A stretch of 64,000 nt of DNA. Source: Dictyostelium discoideum. Its lineage: Eukaryota. The notes below the pieces were generated by a model. That model ran no database searches. It worked only from the letters and a program-made list of their open reading frames with translations, and had not been told where the DNA came from. Location: positions 4,512,001 to 4,576,000 of the forward strand of contig CM000151.3 of the NCBI GenBank assembly GCA_000004695.1. Reading direction: 5' to 3'. Below are positions 1,889 to 34,869 of the stretch, piece by piece (positions within the stretch are counted from its first letter, which is position 1; each line of letters opens with the position of its first letter). Made by a program: the position numbers and the translations under genes.

Positions 1889-4195
<2,307 letters not shown>

Positions 4196-4375
4196 ATTTC
4201 ACTACAGTAGCGTAGTGAATTTTATTATTTAATTTCACTACAGTAGCGTAGTGAAAAAAAAAAATCACTGACCTTAAATTTTTTTTTTTTTCAAAAAACA
4301 AATAAAGTTTATTAAATTGAAATTTTATTTTTTGTTTTAATTATTATTTTATTTATTTTTATTATAATTATTGTT

Positions 4376-4414
<39 letters not shown>

Positions 4415-6671
4415 CAATTTTTTTTTTTAAATTTTTTTCAATTTTTATTTGTTTATTAAATTGTAATTTTATTTTTTGTTTTAATTATTATTTTATTTAT
4501 TATTATTGTTAATTTTTTTTTTTTTTCAATTTTTTTTTTTTTAATTTATTTTTATTAATTTATTTTTATTAACTCCCTGAGTTGTTCAATTGCTTGATTT
4601 ACCATATCACTGTAAACACTGCACACAATTGAATTTTTTCTAGCTTTGTTACCTCTGGTGCATTTGATGTTTTTGCATTTTCCTTTGTATACAAAAAAGT
4701 CCAAATATAATTCGTTTTCTATTACAGTTTTTACACAATGTTGGTGAAATTGTTTTGATTTTAATTCTAATGCTTCTAACATCATATTTGGATTTTTAAC
4801 GATTAAAGCATCACCACTATTTACATATAGTACTTTGGCTGCTTTTTCGAGGAATTTAGTCAAATTTTCCTCTGAATCTAACTATTCTTCATTGCCATAT
4901 TCAATGGCTAAATTTCTTAAGAGTTTTATCGAATCTATTAATTCTTCGATCATTCTTTTTTTTTGAAATTTTTTTTTATTTTGTTTTTTCAATTTTTTTT
5001 TTTTATTTTGTTTTTTCAATTTTTTTTAAGTTTTATTTTTTTTTATTTTTTTTTGAAGGCTATTGATTCCATCTTCCAAAAATTCAAGTTTATAAAGTTG
5101 TTTAGTGTCTTCCTGTATTACCTTATGAATTTTACACAAAATCAATATTTTCTATTAGAATTAAATATAAAATTTGTTAATTATTACTGTTTCATATATT
5201 ATTAATCTTTATGTTTTAATTACTTACATTATTTTTTTTAATTTCTAGAAAGAGTACAGTATCACCAACTTTCAATCCCTTTGGTGGTTTTGAATTCCAT
5301 TGATTTTGGTAACTTGTGAGATTTTCAAGAATAATAGCTGTTCTTTCTTCTTTTGAAACATCTGAAACACCAATTGATTGAGAGTCTTGTTCTGATTGAA
5401 CATTAATAAACAAAGGAACAATACCAACAGCTTGAGATGGTGTCATTTTAATTGTTCTTGTTTTTGTATTATTGTAATCATACAAAGCTTGTTTTAATAG
5501 TTCAGAAAGAGACCTAGAAGTACCATCAAGAAAACTAAAATTTATTTATAAATGATTAATTAATAAACATATCGATAATTTATATTGTTCACAATATCAT
5601 ACTCTTGTTGTTTTAATTTTGAGATCCTCTCCTTGATAGTTCGATTCAATCTTTCTACCATACCTTGAGTTGTTGGTGTACGAGGAGCTCCATGTGCTGA
5701 CTTGGAGCCTGGAAAAAGTTTTAGGAATTCTTTTTGGACTTTGTTTTTAAATTCACGTCCATTATCGCAGTGCCATACTTTCACAGGTTTGCCAAAGTAC
5801 GTGAGAGCCAAAAAATTGTATATGGGAACTGTTCTCTTTGTTGTCAAACATCTAAAAAATAAATGATAATTAAAATAAAAAAAGAAAACTAATAAATTAA
5901 TAAATAAAAAATAAATACCTTCCAGTAGCAAATTTTGTAAAAGAATCTATGCATAGAATAATGTAAACAACATCGGTGTCGTACGGTTGTACAGAGTCAT
6001 ATTGGATAAGATCATCTAGTTTAGTTAGTATCTTTTCATTATCATCATCGTATGTAACTTTTTCTTTATGTTCACCTTTAATTGATGTTAAATCATAAAC
6101 CAATCTTGAGTATTCCTCGGTATCTACAATTGGAGCAAAATCCTTTGTTATACCTATTAATTTATTTAAATTATTAAAAGAGTTTTAATATAAAAGTTAC
6201 AAAACATCATATAAAAATGATTGATACCAAACCTTTTATTCTATTTCGTTGGCAAATGTCACACGTATCTACTGCATCAGATACAAAAGAATACAATCCC
6301 ATATTATAATATTTAGTCTTGTAGTTCCCATAGGTTGCATCTCTTCCTATATGACCTTTATGCATTTCTTCCCAGAGTGATACCATTCTATAATCATTAA
6401 TTACTTCTAAACACACTTCTTTTGATATATTTCTATCTCCGCCACAATTCATGACTTTTTTTTCAATTCTAAATAATTTTTCTTTTCTGTTTCTGTTTTT
6501 TATTGGTCAGAATTTAAAAAATGATTGTGTTATTGTAAGGAAAAATATTTACTCATCATGTAAAAATTTATAATTTTTATGTTTAGTATTTTCAAAATTA
6601 TTATCTTCAATAAATTTTAAATAATTTATAATTTCATTTATTTTATCTTGTTTCATTTTGGGAAAATGAAA

Positions 6672-6706
<35 letters not shown>

Positions 6707-6983
6707 TGTTGGGGAAAAAAAAAAAAAGTTTTGGCCCAAAAAAAAAAAAAAAAATAAAATAAAAAAAAAAAAAAATAAAATAAAAAAAAAAAAAAATAAA
6801 AAAACTTATATAGAACTAATAATCAAATAAAAGATAATAATTTAATAAACTTTATTTGTTTTTTGAAAAAAAAAAAATTTAGGGTCAGTGATTTTTTTTT
6901 TTCACTACGCTACTGTAGTGAAATTAAATAATAAAATTCACTACGCTACTGTAGTGAAATTTTATTGAAAATTCCCTACAACA
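4196..6983. mobile_element. TIR DNA transposon of about 2.8 kb encoding a retroviral-type DDE integrase, resembling the Dictyostelium Tdd-4/DDT class; inserted in a coding exon
   Basis: Terminal inverted repeats: 4196-4281 (aatttcactacagtagcgtagtgaattttattatttaatttcactacagtagcgtagtgaaaaaaaaaaatcactgaccttaaattt) is the reverse complement of 6877-6961. Each arm holds two copies of the near-palindrome ttcactacagtagcgtagtgaa. The right end extends to ...gaaaattccctacaacaa, which is the same terminus as the second element at 11607-11622. Inside are minus-strand ORFs with an integrase HHCC zinc finger and a DDE catalytic core. Confidence 0.8.
4555..6452 (-). CDS. Transposon integrase (HHCC zinc-binding domain, DDE core, GDTV C-terminal region); fragmented across several frames (introns and/or decay)
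   Basis: Minus-strand ORFs: 6207..6452 (HKGH...CDICQRN, an HHCC motif); 5897..6103 and 5560..5931 (VWHCDNGREF...HGAPRTPTTQGMVERLNRTIKE, the D,D(35)E signature of retroviral/retrotransposon integrases); 5216..5485 (KVGDTVLF, C-terminal region); and 4555..4863. The frames differ between segments, as expected for the intron-interrupted integrase ORFs reported for Tdd-4. Confidence 0.55.
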
Positions 6984-9351
6984 ATCATTATTCATGGTAA
7001 ACAATTTAGAAATGATTACTTTTATTCAAAATTTGGTGATCAAGCAAATTTAAATGTATTTTCAAATGGTATGTTTAAAAAACTATTTAAATTTAATTTT
7101 TTATATTATTTTTTTAAACTATTAAATTAATATTCTGGTTCTAATTTTTTTTTTTTTTTTTACTTAATTTTTTATAGATTGTTTTGAATTTCCACCAAGA
7201 GTTTCAAATTTAACTTTATTATCTAGTAATAGCGTTACATTAAACTCTAATCAAACTATTGGATGGGAAATTGTAATTGATAGTGGTGGTGGTATTAAAA
7301 TTAGTTATGTATTTATACATGTAATTTCAAATTTAGATAAAAAAGGATACACATTTGAATTCTATCCAAACTCTACCTCATGGGAAACCACAATTGGAAT
7401 TGCTCTATCACCAGAAACAACACCATCACAAATATTTAAAATTTATAATGCAACTATTATTGACGAAAGAGGAATTAGATCGGACCATATTGATAGTTTT
7501 AAAGTTGATGAAATTTTTTCAAATCAAAGTCCAATTTATCCAATTTCAATTTCACCATTTTATTTATTTGATCTTAGTTTATTTAGCATAACAGTTAATT
7601 CACCATTCATTACTGAATCTGTTCCACCAACAATTACACTTGTAACCCTACCATTTGAAAATGTAGATGATTTTTTACAATATTCAATTTTCTTTCAATT
7701 AGTGTCAACTGATAATGTTGGTATATTAAAAAGCCATATACCACAAGTTTATTTATCGCATTCATCAAACTATGGAGATTTACAAATTTTCCAATGTAAT
7801 ACAGCTATTAATGATACGTCTGAAACAACTTGTAATTATTATGTTACTTGTAAAGTTGAATATGGTTATGGTATTCAAAACCCTGTATCTGTTTTAGTTT
7901 ATGGTGTTGTTGATACTAGTTTCAATGTTGCAAGCTATAGTAGTTTAAGTGAATCCCAAACCTTTGATTTTAATGGTCTTTCCAATAAAAAAACACCTTC
8001 AATTTCAAGTTGGACACCATTAACACCATATAATAATAAATTAACAATTTTTGGTAGAAATTTCCCAACATCAGGTGGAAGTGCTTATTTATATTATACA
8101 GATAGTGATATTGATAATTTAGTAACTTTGAAATTTATTCATTCATCATCTGTAATGGCAGTTTTAGAAATTGGACAAGGTTTAAAACCATTTGTAGTTT
8201 ATACTCAAAATTCAAATAATGAAAAATCTAATAAAGTTGAAATTCATTATTTAGGAATTCCAACATCTTCTTCATCCTCATCTTCATCATCAGATGATGA
8301 TTCAACATTACCACCAGTTTTATGTTTTGATAATTGTGGTGGAACATCAAGAGGTACTTGTATTCCAAATGTTGGATGTAATTGTAAATCACCATATAGT
8401 GGTATAAATTGTCTTTCTGAAACAATTAAAATTCCAAAACCTCAAACAAATACAACATCACCAGATTCAAGAAATGAATTCCCTATTAGTGGTTCAGATA
8501 TTAAACTAAATACAATCATTTCAATTGTAGCATTAAGAGAATTAGATTTTCAAGGTAAACAGGTTAATATTCATTATTTTGATAGTTGGAATTTTACAAC
8601 AATATCTCAAACCAATTTCACATATAGATCACCAATTTTAAAAAACAATCAACATGTTTCAAATATATCAGTAGCAATGGAATGGCATGAACAATCTACA
8701 ACTATTACATTTGCAAAACAAAATCTCACAATTAATCCATCAACTTTGAAATATTATATTTCATTAGATAAATACCCATTTGCATCATCATTAAATACAC
8801 TTGATTTAATCATTAAATCAATGTTTAAAAGTTCACAAACTGATGATGTATGTGGCAGTAAAGGATTTTCATTAAATGATGGAAATGATTATATGACATT
8901 ACAAATTGGAACATACTCATTTGAAGGTAAATTTATAAAAAAAGCAATTATCAATGGCAATAGAATTGTAACAATAAATAATAAATTATTAAATGAAAAT
9001 CAACTAAATAGTAATTCAACTATAACTAAAGAAAAAGATTCATCAAATCAACTTTCATCCTTTATCTCAATTGAAATACCTCATTATGATTCAAATGTAT
9101 TATTAGATCCAAGTTTTTCAGTTTTATTAGATTCAAATGAATCATATAAAAACTCTGAAAATTCAATTTGTACTTCAAAAAAATCCTCAAAACTTACTAC
9201 CGCTCAAATAATTGCTATTGTTATTGTTTCTGTAGTTTTTGTAATAATTCTAGCTCTCTTTATAATCGTTAAATTTTCAAAATCTGATAAATTTTTATCT
9301 ATAAGAATTTTCTATTATAAATTATTTAAACGATTTAAGAAAAAGTATTAA
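6984..9351 (+). CDS. 3' part of the same membrane protein gene (exons 6984..7068 and 7178..9351), with an EGF-like Cys-rich module, a transmembrane helix and a short basic tail
   Basis: The frame is open from the transposon end (IIIHGKQFRNDYFYSKFGDQANLNVFSNG, then a GTATGT donor at 7069). An acceptor at 7176-7177 leads into the long ORF 7702..9351 (CFDNCGGTSRGTCIPNVGCNCKSPYSGINC; ALRELDF...TMNPSTLKYYISLDKYPF; IIAIVIVSVVFVIILALFIIV as the TM helix). A TIG-like motif is present (KLTIFGRNFPTSGGSAYLYY). The region is co-linear with the paralog. Confidence 0.65.
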
Positions 9352-9959
9352 ATTTATTTTTTAAAAAATAATATTAATTGTAAAATAAAGTTTAAAAAAT
9401 AGTTTTTATTAAATAGTTAAAGATTAATGTTTTTTTTTATACCTTTATTTTAATTTTTATTTATTATTTTTATTATAATAATCAGTAAATTTTTGAAAAC
9501 TATTGAATTTTTGGAATATAAATCCACCATTTAATTAATTACTACCAAGTGGTTAAACTTGGATGAAAATCCATTAGTAATTTTATTAATTAAATAATCT
9601 TTCAAAACTGGTAATTTTGAAATAGATAATTTTTTCCCAATCGTATTCGTTGTATGGGCTATCTGTTGATAATAACCAATGAAAAAGATGAAAGCAATCT
9701 TCTTTGATAGCACACGCTAATAATTCTTGTAATAATGTTTTTAAAAAACTCTTTACCCAATTCCTTAATGATTCTATGTGAAAGAAGATATTTAAAAGTT
9801 ATTAAATCAACACCATCATCATTATTAATAATTCTTTTTAAAAAAACTGAATAAATTAAATTTGCATGATTATCTGTAAACTTTTCACAGGTTATTATTT
9901 TTTCAAGCATATCAATTCTTCTATTCTTAATTGAATGATATATTAAACTTTCAAAAAAA

Positions 9960-10176
9960 TTGTTGAAGGGAATTTTTTTTGAAATTTCGCTTTTTAAACG
10001 GCAGTGAATTTTTACACTAAAATACACTGTTTATGCATGGTGTAAAAATTCACTAAATTTTTTTTTTTTTATAATTAAATTAAAAAACAATTTATTTAAT
10101 CAGAAAAATAAAAAACCAATTTTATTCAGTTATTTGCTTGTTATTTATTTTTTTATAACAAAAAAATTTAGTTTGC

Positions 10177-10235
<59 letters not shown>

Positions 10236-10327
10236 CAATTATTTTTTTCAATTTTTTTTTTTATCGATTGTTTTCATTTTTGGGGAATAAAATAAAATTG
10301 TTCGATAAAAAAAAAATTGAAAAAAAT

Positions 10328-10370
<43 letters not shown>

Positions 10371-10569
10371 GGTTTATATTTTAATTATGGTATTCATTAT
10401 TGTTTATATAATTATTTTTAGTATTTATATTATTTATAATTATAAACTCGAGTTAATAGAATTATTATTATTATTATTATTTAAATGTGGGTCAACTATA
10501 ATTAGTGTCTTAGTTCACTTATTTAATATTAACTTATTTTTGTGTCTTCGTTACATAAAAAAAAAAATG

Positions 10570-10603
<34 letters not shown>

Positions 10604-11622
10604 AAAAAAAAAATAAAAAAAAAAAGAAAAATAAAAAAAAAAAGAAAAATAAAAAATAAAAAAAAAAATAAAAAAAATAAAAAAAAAATAAAAAAAAAAG
10701 AGGGGTACCCCCTAAAAAAAAAGAGGGTACCCCCCTAAAAAAAATAATAATTTTAATAATAATAATAATAATAATAATAAAAATGAAAATTAATATTTAA
10801 ATAAAAAAAAGAGGGTACCCCCCTAAAAAATGTTGGAATTTAATTAAATTTATTTTTTATTTTTTTTATTTTTTAATTTTATTTTTTTTATTTTTTAATT
10901 TAAAAAATGTTGATATAAAACAAAAAAATTTTTTCAAAAAAAACATTTCAAATTATTAACAAATTATATTATTATACTTTAATGTATGTGTACAATTTTA
11001 AAAATTTAAAATTTGTTCTATTTTTATCAATCATATCATGTATATTTATTAATTAAATCTCATATATTCTTATTCCCAGCAAATGACATCAGGTGGAATC
11101 GTACAACCAGGCCAAAATCTCTCACAACGTCCAATAAACGGCCAATATGGCTGGGGACCAGCAGCAGGAAGTGCCGCAAATCCACGTGGCGATCTCCGTG
11201 GTTACACTTACAATATTAGATAGTTTCGCTGTCTATTTCTGAATATTCAGAAATCTTTGTTTAATGCCAAAAATAGTAGATATCTATTATATTTTCTCAT
11301 TTTATAAATCTGATAAGATCTGTCTTAAATAAAAAAAATCAAATTTTTTTATAAATTAAAAAAAATCATTTCCGCAAATCCGCAAAAAATAGCGGGAATT
11401 AAATTATTTATTGTTTTTTAAATTGTTTTTTTTGCGTGATATGAAATGAACAGCAAATGAACAACGTGTGAGTTGTATTAGCTGATGGTAAATTGTTGTT
11501 AATTTATAAAAAAAAAAAAAAAATTTTAGTGAATTTTTACACTACGCATAAACAGTGTATTTTAGTGTAAAAATTCACTGCCGTTTAGAAAGCGAAATTT
11601 CAAAAAAAATTCCCTACAACAA
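9960..11622. mobile_element. Non-autonomous TIR element of about 1.66 kb from the same family as the integrase-bearing element (identical 16-nt terminus, different subterminal hairpin repeats)
   Basis: 9960-10050 (ttgttgaagggaattttttttgaaatttcgctttttaaacggcagtgaatttttacactaaaatacactgtttatgcatggtgtaaaaattcacta) is the reverse complement of 11527-11622 (...aaaaaaaattccctacaacaa). Each TIR contains an internal hairpin (agtgaatttttacac...gtgtaaaaattcact). The interior is homopolymer and low-complexity DNA with no credible ORF. Confidence 0.75.
10685..10835. repeat. Three dispersed copies of an aaaaagagggtacccccctaaaaaa motif, with a palindromic GGGTACCC core, inside the non-autonomous element
   Basis: Copies lie at about 10689-10706, 10717-10737 and 10808-10826. 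They are the only G/C-rich islands in an otherwise A/T homopolymer interior. Confidence 0.6.
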
Positions 11623-11791
11623 AATCATTTAATTGCTTTTGGTTGTATTCTGGGAATAAACAACCAATTGTTTCAATGATTGTTTGGGATTTATTGGTTT
11701 TAAATATATCAATTAATAAATAAGATTTGTGTAAATTTAATTGATAAATTGGGTTTGTATGGATTTAATTTTTTTTCAAAAATACTATCAA

Positions 11792-12301
11792 TCATACTAT
11801 TATTAAAGGTATTGATACCAATACCAACCATACTATTATTAAAGATATTGATACCAATCGTACTATGGTTAAACGTATTGATACATTAATATTATTACCA
11901 ATTGTATTTAATAATAATTCTAAAAATTCTAAATCATTGGAACTTAAAACTTTTTCAATGAGATATTTAATTGTTTTAGTTTCAATATTAATGAGTTTAA
12001 TGAATGATGTTAAATTTGATTTAAAATTATTCTTTTCTGAAAAGAAATCATATAATGTTTCATCTAAATCTCTAATGAATACTAATATTTGTTTTTGTGA
12101 TGTTTCTTTAAATTTTAATAAACTTGAAATATATAATTCACTGGAAATTGGTAAAAGTTTTAATTTTAAACAATTTAAAAATGATTTTGAATTTGGATTG
12201 AATTCATTTACACTTGATAGTTTATCAATGAATTTTGATATCTTTTCACTATCTTGAATTGTTGTTGAACAATCTTGGAAACAATCTTTTTTTTTGATCA
12301 C
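11792..12301 (-). CDS. Hypothetical protein, 5' exon; its putative 3' exon lies beyond the non-autonomous element, at about 9659..9950 (minus strand)
   Basis: The ORF starts MIKKKDCFQDCSTTIQDSEKISKFIDKLSSVNEFNPNSKSFLNCLKLKLL.... Its C-terminal 25-30 codons read through 33-bp tandem repeats (11795-11895), so they are probably intronic; a GTAATA donor lies near 11893. A second open frame (..DNHANLIYSVFLKRIINNDDGVDLITFKYLLSHRIIKELGKEFFKNIITRIISVCYQRRL..) follows the element and has similar composition. No homolog was recognised. Confidence 0.3.
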   Translation of the reverse strand: MIKKKDCFQDCSTTIQDSEKISKFIDKLSSVNEFNPNSKSFLNCLKLKLLPISSELYISSLLKFKETSQKQILVFIRDLDETLYDFFSEKNNFKSNLTSFIKLINIETKTIKYLIEKVLSSNDLEFLELLLNTIGNNINVSIRLTIVRLVSISLIIVWLVLVSIPLIIV

Positions 12302-12794
12302 CTATTTCTTAAAAAGTTTTTTTTTTTTTTTTTTTTATCCCTAATACTAAAATTATAATTTGATGGTCAAATTATAATTTTTACGAGTTCATTTTTTTTT
12401 TTTAGATATTTATTTAATAATTGATTATTTGATTTATTTATTTTTTTAAATTTATTATTTAGTTTTTAATAAAAAAAAAAAATAAAAAATAATTAGAAAC
12501 CAAATAATCAAATATTTATTTAATAAAAAAGAACTTAATTTATAAAACTTGTGCCAATAAAAAAAAAAAAAAAAAAAAAAAAAATAGGCACATAAAAAAA
12601 ATGCACTAAAAATAAAAAAAAAAAAAAAAAAATTAAAAAAACGAAAAAAAAAAAAACGAAGAAAAGTCCCACAAACTAGACCAATGATTGTTTTGTACTT
12701 TAGAACGAATCATAACAACCAAACAATTCGACAATAAGTAGGTAATTCTTATCTATAGAATGTTTTCTACGGAATCATTCAATACATAAAATTA

Positions 12795-30145: not shown

Positions 30146-31714
30146 ATGATTTTAAAGTTTTTAATTTTTATTTGTTTTGTGAGTATACTTTTTTTATGTG
30201 AAAAAGCTTTAGGGGAATTAATCATTAAAGATGTAACAATTGATAAAAATGCAAGTACTAAATATAAGTTTCAAGGGAGCTGCTCATATTCACTATTTGC
30301 TTTAGTAATTGATGATAGTTCTCCCTCTTCACTTACAATATATACCGACTCCAACAAAGGTATGGGATTCGATGCTTATGCATTTGTTGCGCAATCATAC
30401 AAAAATTCCACTTATTCATCTACTCTTTTCACCATTTCAGTTTTTTCTTATAATGGAGAAGGTGAACCTGTTCTTATTGCTTCTAATGATATTGTAAATT
30501 CAACTTTATATTTACCCTTAAAATGTTTAGGTAAAGATTAAAAAAAAAAAAAAAAAAAAAATTAAACAATAAAAAAAAAAGATTAATTAACACTAATTTA
30601 ATTAAACAAACAAATAAAAAAAAAAAAAAAAAATTAAAAATTTAAAATCAATTTAAAGAAATTCAAACTGGCCAAATGACACTATTAAAAAAAACAGACA
30701 TGCAACCAGATATTTTTGGATTATTATCATATCAGTTTCAAGTTGGTGGATTAATATCAAATTATCCATCAGGTGGAATTACGGGTTATAACTCTTTTAA
30801 TTCTTTAATGACTAATTATGTATATATAAGTTTTTCTTCTGGGCCAAAAGGAGATACTCCAAAATCACCATCAACACATTTTGTGTTTAGTGATTTTACT
30901 GTTTCTTTGGGTGAATATTATAATAATACAAGTAAGTTTTATTTTTATTTAATTAATTTTAATTTCAAAATCCTTATTAATATAAATTCTTTTTTTAATG
31001 ATAATAATTATAATAGATGTGGATTCTGTAACCAATATTAAGAGATTCCCAAACGTTCAAGATGTTCAATTAATGGGCAAATCTTTTGTACCACTGTTCA
31101 CATTCGAGTCTGACACACCATATTTAATTCCAAGTTTTTCATTAATGGTTATTTCTTCCTTTCTTAATTTTTATTTTAGACCAATTTCAAAAAAAAACAA
31201 TATAACAACATTTATTGGTGCCTATGGTTATATGGATAGTGGATTATTAACTAATTATACTTTTTATGCACAACATCAATCAATTTCAACAATAAGAGAT
31301 ACATTTAGTTTTAATATTAAAGGTAAAAATTTATAATTTATTAATTAATATTAACTCGATAATTAATTAATTAATTAATTAATTTATTTATTTATTGAAA
31401 AGAATTTGAAAAGAATTTAATACCTATAAATACAAATAATATTACTCAAATCAATAGTTGGTTGATTATAGATTTTAGTTCTACTAGTCCATATGATTTC
31501 ACACCATTCTATATCACTCATTTATCAACAAAATATTATAAATTTCCATTTGGTTTCAAAAAAGGTGGGTTAGGAGGTTATCAATATTCTGCAACATTTT
31601 TATTACCAGACGTCATCTCAAATCCAGAAAATATTTCATTTTCAACAAACAGTTTTTTTAAAAGTTCTGATAGCGATGGTTTTACATCATTTGTTAAATC
31701 TCCAAATCAAGGTA

Positions 31715-31755
<41 letters not shown>

Positions 31756-34700
31756 GTCCTAAAGGAATATATAATAACATTTTTTTTATTTACGAAAAAA
31801 AGCTCCTTATAGTGCGCCTGTATATGTTGATCACAAATTTTATCATATATATGATTCATTTTATTTATTACTATTTAATATCAAACATGAAAGTCCAATT
31901 TATAAAATATCAAATAATTATAGAGATTATTTCATAACTACGCTATCTTCTGGAACCGACATGGATGGTTGGTTTGAAATGATAGTCGATACAAGAAGAA
32001 AGGTTACACATATTCTTACAAATCAATTCAGATATTTTGTTCCCTCTATTGATCGTTATTATTCTTCAATTAATTTAAAACCTTTTAAAATACCTCCAAT
32101 ATTAGATAGTAAGTTATTTTTTTTCAATTCCTTTTTTTTTTTTTTTTTTTTTATATATAGAATTTACTAATTTTAAATTATTAGATATAGATTTTTTTAA
32201 TGAAATTAGAGATGTATCAATATTATATAAAACTATGAATGTTACAAATTCTAAAGCTGGAAATATATTATATTTTAATTATACAAATTTAGATATTGAA
32301 ACACCAATTAATTTATTAGTAAATCTTCCAGAATATTTTGCAAACCAAATTCAATCCACTGTAATTTTACCAGAGGTATATTTAGATAATTCAGTACCAG
32401 CAATTTGGAATAGTACAATAAATATGTTTCAAGTTGAATTTTTTTTACCAAAAAATTCTCTACCTGGTAAAATTCCATTTGCTTTATTCTTTAAAAATGA
32501 TTTATTTATATTAGGTCAATCATTAGGTCCAAATGCTGAATTTAATGTAATTTCTGAAAGTAAGTTTTTACAATATTGTAAAAAAAAAAAAAAAAAAAAA
32601 AAGAAATTCTAATAGTTTTTTTTTTGTTTTTTGTTTTATAGATTGTGATTTATATGGCCCAATTTTTGAAAATATTATAAAAATATCAAATACAATTAGT
32701 GGTGATTTTCTTTTAGTTGGTTGGAATTTAACTATCAGTGATCCAATTAATGGATTTGCAGGTGGTTATATAGTTATAAAAGGTACAGATGGTTCAATAT
32801 ATAATAAAACTATCATACCAACAGAAAACATTTATAGTGATACATATTTTGTTTCAGTAAATATAAGTTCACCATGTGCAAAACATAATTTAATAATTAC
32901 TGATGTAGCACTATTTGATACTGAAAATAATAATTCAACATTTTCAATATTTAATGAATATGAAGGATTTTATAGGTCACTCTTTAATCCATTTATAAAT
33001 TTTATTGGTGATAATTCAATTAATAAGATTTCAGTTAACTGTATTACAGAAGCTATCGATGATACTCCACCTAAAATAATTAGTGTATATGTGGATCCAA
33101 AAGAAATTGATATTTCCAGTAATTTAAGAGATGTAGTAATAGGTTTTAATGCTGTTGATTCAGAAAGTGGTTTAAAGAAGGACGCATTACCAATGGTTTA
33201 TTTATCAAGTGTAGATCTCGATAAAATTGAATGTCCAATTATTAATGTTACTGTTATAGATAAATTCAATTCCCTATATCGATGCACAGTAAATGTACCA
33301 CTTGGTTTTGGTTACCCATATGGACTTTTAATATCAATATATGGATTGGTTAATAATGGTGGTACTTTTGGTGGTTACAGTACAGCTGATTTGAAAGAAA
33401 ATGGTTTTCCTCACTCCATCAATACCACATTTGCATTGGGTTATCCAATTATTGAGGGAGTTGGTAGAATTTCGACACTAGGTGGTGAAATTTGGATTAC
33501 AGGTAAAGGTTTATTGGGTGTAGATTATGCTATTTTAGAATCTAATAAACTTTTGGTCTCTAAAACTATTGGAAACTCAGCCATTTTATTAACAGGTATA
33601 CCATCATTGACTCCAAATACAAAATATTCTATTTTCGTTGTCAAAGGAGCATATATTTCGAATCGAATTGATTTCATACCATATGAAAAGGTTATTGGTT
33701 CTCCCTCTCCGACAGAAACTCCTTCAACAACTCCTTCAACAACTCCTTCAACAACTCCTTCAACAACACCAACTATTAAATGTTCTGGTACACCAGAATG
33801 TGGTGGTTCATTAAAAGGTTATTGTAATTCTGGAAATTGTGTTTGTTTTTCACCATGGATTGGTGTTGATTGTACATCAAAAATAATTTTAGTTGAACCA
33901 CCACGAGTTAATACAAGTGACCCATCAAGTGAAATTGAAACACCCATTTCAAATAGTTCGAATATTAAAGAAGCAGCAGTTTATAAATCATTTGTAGCAT
34001 TAATAGCACTAAGAGAACTTGATTTTAATGATGTAGTAATTAATCAATATTATTTTAGTAAATGGTTATTCAGTGAAATTAGTCCACTATCTTCAAAATA
34101 TATAACAAACATTACAAATAATGATGGTAAATCAATTTCACAAGTTACAGCTATAACTGAATGGTTCACTAAAGAAACAAACATATCATTTGGAGGTAGT
34201 GATTTAACAATGAATCCGTCATCATTAAAATATACTATTTCAATTGATTCTTATCCATTTAGAGATAAGCTTTGTAGATTAGAATTATTAATGTCTGCTT
34301 CTTTTACATCTTCAAAAACTGATGATATTTGTTCATCGCAAGAATTTACAACAACAGCAGCAGCAGCAAACTCAAAGGATGACAATGAAATTAGTGGTGG
34401 TAATAACTATTTAAAGATTCAAATTGGTGATCACTCAATGTTTGCAAGATTTTTAAAAAGAGGAATTATTGATGATAAAACTATCACTGTAGATAATAGA
34501 CAAATCATTAATGATGATAAAACTACTTCAACAATCGAAAACTCTGGATATCATTCAAGCGCATTAATTGGTATCCTTATACCATATTTTAGAAATTATT
34601 CTACAATAGATCCAGATTTCTCTGTAATAATAGATAATCAATCATCTTCACCCTCATCACCAAATTCAATTTGTTCACAAACTTCAAACTCTGGACTTAG

Positions 34701-34869
34701 TAAATCTTCTCTTGCTGGTATTATAATTGGTGGTGTTGCATTTTTCTTGGTAATTGTCATTTGTATTATATACTTCCTTTATAAGACTAACCCAGTTCCA
34801 TTTAAATTAATTAAACAAAGAATTTTCCTTGGTTGTTTTATTTCCAAAAATTTTAAATCGAAATATTAA
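30146..34869 (+). CDS. Intact paralog of the transposon-interrupted membrane protein gene: signal peptide, TIG-like repeats, EGF-like Cys-rich module, TM helix (7 exons, about 1370 aa)
   Basis: Approximate exons (+/-1-2 nt): 30146..30530, 30659..30931, 31017..31322, 31472..31711, 31803..32108, 32185..32559, 32642..34869. All junctions are phase 1 and the total is divisible by 3. The C-terminal ORF carries CSGTPECGGSLKGYCNSGNCVCFSPWIGVDC, ALRELDF, TMNPSSLKYTISIDSYPF and a TM helix (IIIGGVAFFLVIVICIIYFLY). These are co-linear with 7702..9351. The exon ending ...LPGKIPFALFFKNDLFILGQSLGPNAEFNVISE aligns across the transposon insertion point of the paralog. Confidence 0.7.

Follow-up and report, generated by a model that had tools for sequence, protein, structure and literature searches.

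Here, we propose that positions 4196..6983 of a 64,000-nucleotide stretch of Dictyostelium discoideum DNA (contig CM000151.3; "the window" below) hold a 2788-bp transposon copy, assignable to the Tdd-4 type on the features of its sequence, which has split a single gene for a ComC-like membrane protein. This is based on the two flanks rejoining as one reading frame, on the same join standing empty in four other assemblies, and on the segment having inverted arms and a minus-strand gene for an integrase-like DDE transposase. A sequence-only reading of this DNA had already described a 2.8-kb terminal inverted repeat (TIR) transposon inside a coding exon. The explanation that we hold with high confidence is that a Tdd-4-type element integrated at a 5-bp target, ATCAT, in exon 5 of this gene in the AX4-type lineage, so that the gene is broken, and that the copy now there is doubly deleted. 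The insertion is derived, recent and strain-specific.

Empty sites and polarity of the insertion

Deleting 4196..6983 yields exactly the uninterrupted open reading frame (ORF) of 1380 codons that the earlier reading had predicted. Upstream of the insertion the frame of exon 5 runs ...IPPKLCTGTLPFL (also given as ...ITFYIPPKLCTGTLPFL) to 4195, and it resumes at 6984 with IIIHGKQFRNDYFYSKFGDQANLNVFSN. By exact-sequence look-up, the joined 1380-aa protein is KAM9945294.1 (ACTFIT_003550) of D. discoideum strain ACTFIT. Strains ACTFIW and ACTFIR each contribute a protein of 1379 aa to this cluster, and D. cf. discoideum ACTFIY one of 1377 aa. AX4 is represented by two proteins, DDB_G0274923 with 623 aa and DDB_G0274925 with 748 aa, encoded on one 8.48-Mb contig. 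Queried by homology, the host protein and the adjacent phosphofructokinase had brought up no D. discoideum protein, whereas the cluster look-up did find them.

The gene spans 4675, 4601, 4617 and 4585 bp in the four other assemblies and 7463 bp in the window, from which subtraction of the 2788-bp element leaves 4675. All four assemblies carry the empty site CCATTTTTAATCATTATTCATGG, in the context ...GGTACCTTACCATTTTTAATCATTATTCATGGTAAACA..., which is base-identical to the 4195/6984 join; each has a single ATCAT and no footprint, and the TIR motif is absent from all four of these loci. Freed of the element, the window matches the ACTFIT locus (L006) at 99.8% identity over 7434 bp, with 7 mismatches, one gap and no coding change, and it matches the ACTFIW locus (L005), a divergent haplotype, at ~94%. 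A comparison of strains was what the sequence-only reading had looked to for an empty allele, and its suggestion of a recent, gene-disrupting and strain-specific insertion is borne out by the flank identity over 7.4 kb, the identical intact ACTFIT protein and the four empty sites.

Polarity is given by more distant relatives. The D. purpureum orthologue (L003) is a single continuous ORF reading ...KITFYIPQKLCTGTLPYMFIIYGKKFTNDYFYSKFGEAANLNIVSN, against ...KITFYIPPKLCTGTLPFLIIIHGKQFRNDYFYSKFGDQANLNVFSN in the joined D. discoideum sequence; the alignment, with 52% identity across 867 residues, passes the junction without a gap, and the position of the following intron is conserved. A distant paralogue within the window (32166..34827, plus strand) also aligns as one unbroken ORF over the equivalent point (32166-32567). 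The collinearity across this point that had been claimed for it is real but weak, at 23% identity and an E value of 5e-4 in a search confined to the window. Since neither the orthologue nor the paralogue has anything at this position, the insertion is the derived state; the alternative that the earlier reading had named, an equivalent sequence at the same place, is contradicted by these two genes and by the other strains alike.

Two further observations concern these relatives. The window contains a second ComC-like gene (30146-34869), with 30% identity to the host protein over residues 769-1368, and the ComC-like family is thus duplicated locally. In the D. purpureum annotation (GL871116.1, L003 6001-8323 and 8318-10621), the orthologue is divided into partial models of 639 aa and 747 aa, with a 6-nt overlap that coincides exactly with the site of the D. 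discoideum insertion, in an ORF that is unbroken there. This looks like a homology-guided annotation artefact carried over from the split AX4 models.

Host gene and its annotation in AX4

The window is strongly AT-rich, with the short GT-AG introns typical of Dictyostelium. The host gene (1889-9351, plus strand) has six exons and encodes a ComC-like type I membrane protein. In our gene model, exon 1 (1889..2564) encodes the signal peptide and opens the N-terminal half, which is AX4 DDB_G0274923 and was rebuilt exactly; it is followed by exon 2 (2651..2980), flanked by GT-AG introns, exon 3 (3136..3329), for which the AX4 annotation, as rebuilt here, takes an alternative acceptor and starts at 3163, and exon 4 (3416..3830). 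Exon 5 is divided by the element into a 5' portion (3927..4195), ending ...CTGTLPFL in agreement with the empty-site alleles, and a 3' portion (6984..7068) that is supported by the D. purpureum alignment as well. Exon 6 (7178..9351) provides the EGF-like domain, the ComC supersandwich domain, the transmembrane helix and the stop, and makes up the C-terminal half, AX4 DDB_G0274925, as judged from Pfam, the gene model and the rebuilt AX4 model. The insertion is followed by just one intron (7069-7177) and this one exon, so that the two further exons of the earlier reading are corrected to one. All five host introns in the model are GT-AG, with lengths of 86-155 nt, and the element-free splice of the exons is 4143 nt long, or 1380 codons with a single stop at the end.

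The joined protein scores above the cut-offs of all five Pfam families that it matches, DUF7743, DUF7035, DUF7034, DUF7949 (EGF-like) and ComC_SSD, and the intact orthologues of other strains have the identical families on record. In addition, it has a signal peptide and one C-terminal transmembrane helix. The architecture, DUF7743/DUF7035/DUF7034/DUF7949/ComC supersandwich, corresponds to that of the ComC family (communication mutant C) of Dictyostelium surface proteins. The host gene is distinct from comC, of which it is a paralogue; it is uncharacterised, and its annotation consists only of the hypothetical proteins DDB_G0274923 and DDB_G0274925.

Both of these AX4 models were rebuilt residue for residue from the window, which is thus an AX4-type allele. 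DDB_G0274923 takes exons 1-5, with the alternative acceptor of exon 3, and reads into the left TIR to a stop ending at 4210. DDB_G0274925 takes its start from a plus-strand ATG at 6521, which lies within the transposon and on the strand opposite the transposase gene, has 6535...7009 spliced out, and continues as NDYFYSKF... to 9351. It is reproducible only by way of that internal ATG and the 475-nt "intron" 6535-7009, and both the start and the intron are very likely artefacts of gene prediction. Together, DDB_G0274923 and DDB_G0274925 make up a single 1380-aa ComC-like gene that the transposon has split in two. Literature searches on the two identifiers and on transposable element insertion polymorphism in Dictyostelium returned nothing relevant.

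Two other features of the locus were seen. Most of host intron 2 (2981-3135) is an extended (ATT)n/(TAT)n microsatellite without a stop in any frame, its three translations being poly-Y, poly-I and poly-L, and the ACTFIT locus differs from the window there by repeat-length shifts. Downstream of the host gene, a ~3-kb segment (~9578-12565) is present in the window and in ACTFIT and missing in ACTFIW and ACTFIR (L007), whose COQ9 gene stands within ~0.9 kb downstream of the host gene. The segment has a 127-nt inverted repeat (9960-10086 and 11496-11622, 92% complementary) and, at ~10950-11400, a stretch richer in G+C, and is a second structural polymorphism. No tRNA genes were found in the window.

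Structure and ends of the element

The element has inverted arms at 4195-4317 and 6961-6840, ~123 nt long with 1 mismatch and a 1-nt indel. Its right TIR (6840..6983) is complete at 144 nt and ends ...CCCTACAACA, while the left one (4195..4317) is short of its outermost 22-23 nt, among them the TG...CA terminus, and begins with AAT (4195-4197), the microhomology of a 28-bp deletion that is taken up below. Each arm holds two exact copies of the 23-mer TTTCACTACAGTAGCGTAGTGAA, which has 4 matches in the 64 kb and 0 in 100 shuffles. They are arranged as subterminal direct repeats at 4197-4219 and 4233-4255 (4197..4255, plus strand), mirrored at 6901-6923 and 6937-6959. Every copy is a palindrome with an 8-bp stem, and these repeats are presumed to be transposase-binding sites.

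For the true ends of the family, the reference loci were two full-length relatives, L001 (GCA_054883475.1 JBTAPE010000033.1) and L002, together with L004. The homology of L001 and L002 to the window element begins at window 6983 or 6984 and stops at 4195. The L001 copy ends as TCATC-TGTTGTAGGGAATTTTCAATAAAATTTCAC......GTGAAATTTTATGGAAAATTCCCTACAACA-TCATC, that is, with TG...CA termini inside a perfect 5-bp duplication. Four other family termini from these three loci, all complete, share the outer sequence TGTTG(T/A)AG(G/T)GAATTTTC.ATAAAATTTCAC, and the right end of the window copy, which reads inward TGTTGTAGGG..., shows 0 mismatches to the outer 35 nt of the L001 terminus. Since positions 6962-6983 are present at these termini, they belong to the element and it is the left end of the window copy that is truncated, as the sequence-only reading had suspected from the 22 bp lacking there. 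The retained parts of the copy have 96-100% DNA identity to the full-length copy. The 5-bp target ATCAT survives in a sole copy on the right (6984..6988, plus strand), matching its single occurrence in the empty alleles, whereas the L001 sister copy has the perfect TCATC target-site duplication (TSD). The true termini and a TSD, which the earlier reading had hoped to define from other copies, are seen in L001.

Limits at 4195/6961 with a TTTTA or TTTA duplication were also considered and rejected: such joins put the downstream exon out of frame or make a TGA at 6966-6968, and the other copies place 6962-6983 inside the element.

Transposase gene and internal deletion

The transposase gene (5026..6656, minus strand) is truncated to 426 codons, with its H2C2 zinc finger and DDE core kept. 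Its exons are 6656-6553, 6492 (or 6486)-6233, 6153-5919, 5851-5603, 5534-5228 and 5151-5026, separated by five GT-AG introns. Residues 76-119 match PF17921 Integrase_H2C2 at 32.9 bits (cut-off 25.5), with H-x2-H...C-x2-C in exon 2, and the protein scores 27.9 bits against Pfam rve and 23.7 bits against rve_3, both under the curated cut-offs. Against the integrase cores of RSV, PFV and HIV, E values range from 4e-6 to 5e-5, and in this alignment the DNG..F and VER.N motifs (HCDNGREF and QGMVERLNRTIK) fall on the catalytic D and E regions. The nearest proteins are from D. discoideum itself, at 90-99% identity: P0001 (708 aa), P0002 (693 aa) and P0003, which is DDB_G0292352. A second group of D. 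discoideum homologues (P0004-P0007) has 45-51% identity and may be Tdd-5.

In the three full-length relatives, ...EDGINSLQKK is followed by GLYSGFVGG... and then by a long run of SPXX repeats. The window copy breaks off directly after ...SLQKK, in an A-run at 5046..5054 (minus strand; aligned to L001 and L002): ...AGCCTTCAAAAAAAA jumps to a downstream A/T-rich tract, ATAAAAAAAAATAAAAC..., with the junction sequence AGCCTTCAAAAAAAAATAAAAAAAAATAAAAC, at the point where full-length copies read on with GGTTTATACTCTGG... (GGTTTATAC..., encoding GLYSGFVGG...SPXX repeats). The internal deletion is ~1.15 kb relative to L002 and removes ~330 C-terminal codons including the SPXX region, leaving an ORF that stops at the TAA 5028-5026; the breakpoint lies in a run of 8-9 A, which represents microhomology. 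The SPXX region is missing because of this internal deletion, and the copy is best described as a deletion derivative whose membership is given by the DNA identity of its kept parts.

Two side observations relate to these copies. A minus-strand frame of 108 codons at 4555-4881, LDSEENLTKFLEKAAKVLYVNSGD...ELIKIN, is located 3' of the natural stop that the AX4 model P0003 uses, and part of it is a terminal exon in P0017, a model of another strain; a Pfam search with it gave no convincing match. At ~6.07 kb, the L001 copy (L001 1722-7790) exceeds the window copy by more than the 1.15-kb region; the additional sequence includes two blocks of ~0.76 kb each and more besides. This copy sits in a transposon cluster among reverse-transcriptase and integrase genes, and may hold nested insertions or internal duplications.

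Family assignment

Tdd-4 reportedly has 145-bp TIRs, TG..CA ends, and a transposase gene with five GT-AG introns that encodes an HHCC-DDE transposase with SPXX repeats, and a deleted class of 3.4 kb is said to exist. The window element resembles it in TIR length (123 nt plus 22 lost on the left, 144 on the right), in the TG...CA terminus and the 5-bp TSD of its sister copy, in the five GT-AG introns, in the HHCC zinc finger and DDE integrase-like core, and in the C-terminal SPXX repeats of its full-length relatives. It differs in its size of 2.79 kb, against 3.84 kb for Tdd-4, being shorter also than the reported deleted class, and in the loss of the ~1.15 kb that encodes SPXX, of 23 nt at one terminus and of one copy of the TSD. 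Elements of the Ginger2/TDD group have TIRs of roughly 50-300 bp with the termini 5'-TG...CA-3', and the complete right end conforms to this. By these features we place it as a Tdd-4-type DNA transposon of the Ginger2/TDD group, although it may belong to a very close sister family.

Both TDD-4 and TDD-5 are integrase-like DNA transposons of the Ginger2/TDD group with 5-bp TSDs (Bao, Kapitonov and Jurka 2010, PMC2836005). Tdd-5 of D. discoideum, of the same superfamily and so alike in its integrase-like transposase and TSD, is 3,783 bp with 297-bp TIRs (PMC2836005), whereas the TIR length of the window element fits Tdd-4. A parallel is also seen with the Ds elements derived from Ac and with deleted P elements, in which an internal deletion with short breakpoint homology (here the A-run) abolishes transposase coding and the ends are kept. 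Unlike these, the window copy has lost one end too, and its mobilisation in trans is therefore unexpected.

Left-end lesion and consequences

At the left junction, CCATTTTTA-ATCAT-TGTTGTAGGGAATTTTCAATAAAATTTCAC would be expected and CCATTTTTAATTTCAC is observed. The lesion is a 28-nt deletion, comprising 5 nt of target duplication and 23 nt of the element, with a position that is ambiguous over AAT (4195-4197). The deleted interval spans the expected point of transposase cleavage, and zero unique host bases are lost. A history consistent with this anatomy would involve a cut-and-paste element of Tdd-4 type integrating at ATCAT in exon 5 in the lineage of the sequenced strain, a deletion of ~1.15 kb between A-runs stripping the transposase of its SPXX C-terminus of ~330 residues, and a 28-bp deletion at the AAT microhomology taking the left ATCAT and the outer 23 nt with the terminal TG/CA cleavage site. 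The last of these may have begun as a break at the left element end, through abortive excision or imperfect integration, that was repaired by microhomology-mediated end joining; a break there with joining of this kind is the most economical reading.

In the presence of the element, translation proceeds 4 codons into the left repeat and meets a premature TAG at 4208..4210 (plus strand), the position that had been predicted and that is seen both in our gene model and in the rebuilt DDB_G0274923. The product, ending ...LPFLISLQ, has 632 residues instead of 1380, and the 748 residues lost include the EGF-like, supersandwich and transmembrane parts. Because of this premature stop, the host gene is probably null in the AX4-type strain. 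As for the element, the copy is non-autonomous, a full-length transposase not being encoded. With one cleavable end and no full-length transposase of its own, it is very probably immobile as well, even if transposase were supplied in trans.

Several points weigh against this account. It fixes no order of events, as the internal deletion may have come before or after the insertion and the terminal deletion at or after integration. Loss of host function is read from the premature stop, and exon 5 is 354 nt long with phase 1 at both ends, such that skipping it would preserve the frame; the acceptor at 7009 could also be joined in frame to GTAGCG at 4207, a weak donor. Such escape routes exist only on paper, since either would require an intron of 2.8-3.3 kb in a gene with its own introns at 86-155 nt. 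Finally, the name Tdd-4 (deposited sequence AAFI02000006.1:352615-356458) was given from the features listed above and from PMC2836005, and this is why a very close sister family is allowed for above.

Alternative explanations

How the 28 bp were lost admits more than one answer. That the loss is the scar of an excision attempted by an active Tdd-4 transposase and closed by microhomology-mediated repair is a tentative idea that we rate as falling somewhat short of probable. Alternatively, the left end may have been damaged already at integration, with the transposase joining the right end only and host end joining sealing the left. The single ATCAT, with host bases neither lost nor gained, is as this variant would have it, a pattern that a later deletion predicts likewise, and the AAT microhomology is compatible with end joining. 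On the other hand, a transposase synaptic complex normally requires two intact ends, and all four other termini examined are complete. No evidence separates aberrant integration from later deletion, and on balance we think damage at integration unlikely.

It is very improbable that the segment is an old intron-like element that is spliced out, or that exon 5 is skipped, leaving the gene functional. The symmetry of exon 5 and the one in-frame cryptic pair (donor GTAGCG at 4207, acceptor AG ending at 7009) would lend themselves to this, and DDB_G0274925 does use that acceptor. The termini of the element, ATTTCA...ACAACA, neither start with GT nor end with AG, the cryptic donor is unlike the GTAAGT, GTAAAT and GTATGT donors of the host gene, and the intron would be far outside the host range given above. 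In addition, nothing stands at this position in the paralogue, in the orthologue or in four strains, and the DDB_G0274925 model that uses the acceptor at 7009 starts at an ATG in the transposon and looks like a predictor artefact.

An ancestral insertion that was precisely excised in the other strains is hardly credible. Cut-and-paste elements are capable of excision, and the ACTFIT empty allele is otherwise almost identical to the window, but DDE excision normally leaves a duplicated target or a footprint, and all four empty sites have a single ATCAT and none. These sites include the 94%-identical divergent haplotype of ACTFIW and D. cf. discoideum, and the D. purpureum orthologue is collinear residue by residue. 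The left end of the window element is without its cleavage site, which makes precise excision of this copy impossible.

An assembly artefact, in which a transposon copy was misplaced into the gene in the reference, would account for a truncated left terminus and a missing left target duplication that are atypical of a clean insertion, but it is very improbable. In the empty site, both junctions map to one and the same nucleotide, and on the right a perfect terminus of the family adjoins ATCAT, which is unexpected for a collapse or chimera. In addition, two independently annotated AX4 proteins depend on the identical structure.

Significance

Thus, integration of a Tdd-4-type element at ATCAT in the AX4-type lineage, with two deletions in the copy, remains our preferred explanation. 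It is an ordinary polymorphic insertion of a known kind of element, a strain-specific knockout, and its value is mainly in the correction of annotation and in strain genetics, what is known of the mechanism of such elements being unchanged by it. As an insertion it is clean and datable, showing an exact empty site, the scar of a terminal deletion and, in an A-run, an internal deletion. For the organism, a surface protein found intact in four other isolates is probably missing from the reference strain. If the 28-bp loss is indeed the scar of an attempted excision, the locus would be a record of Tdd-4 having been active recently in the laboratory lineage NC4/AX4, and the AX4 reference would be a natural null for a ComC-like surface protein expressed by wild strains. 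In turn, comparisons of developmental or cell-communication phenotypes between AX4 and wild isolates could be affected.

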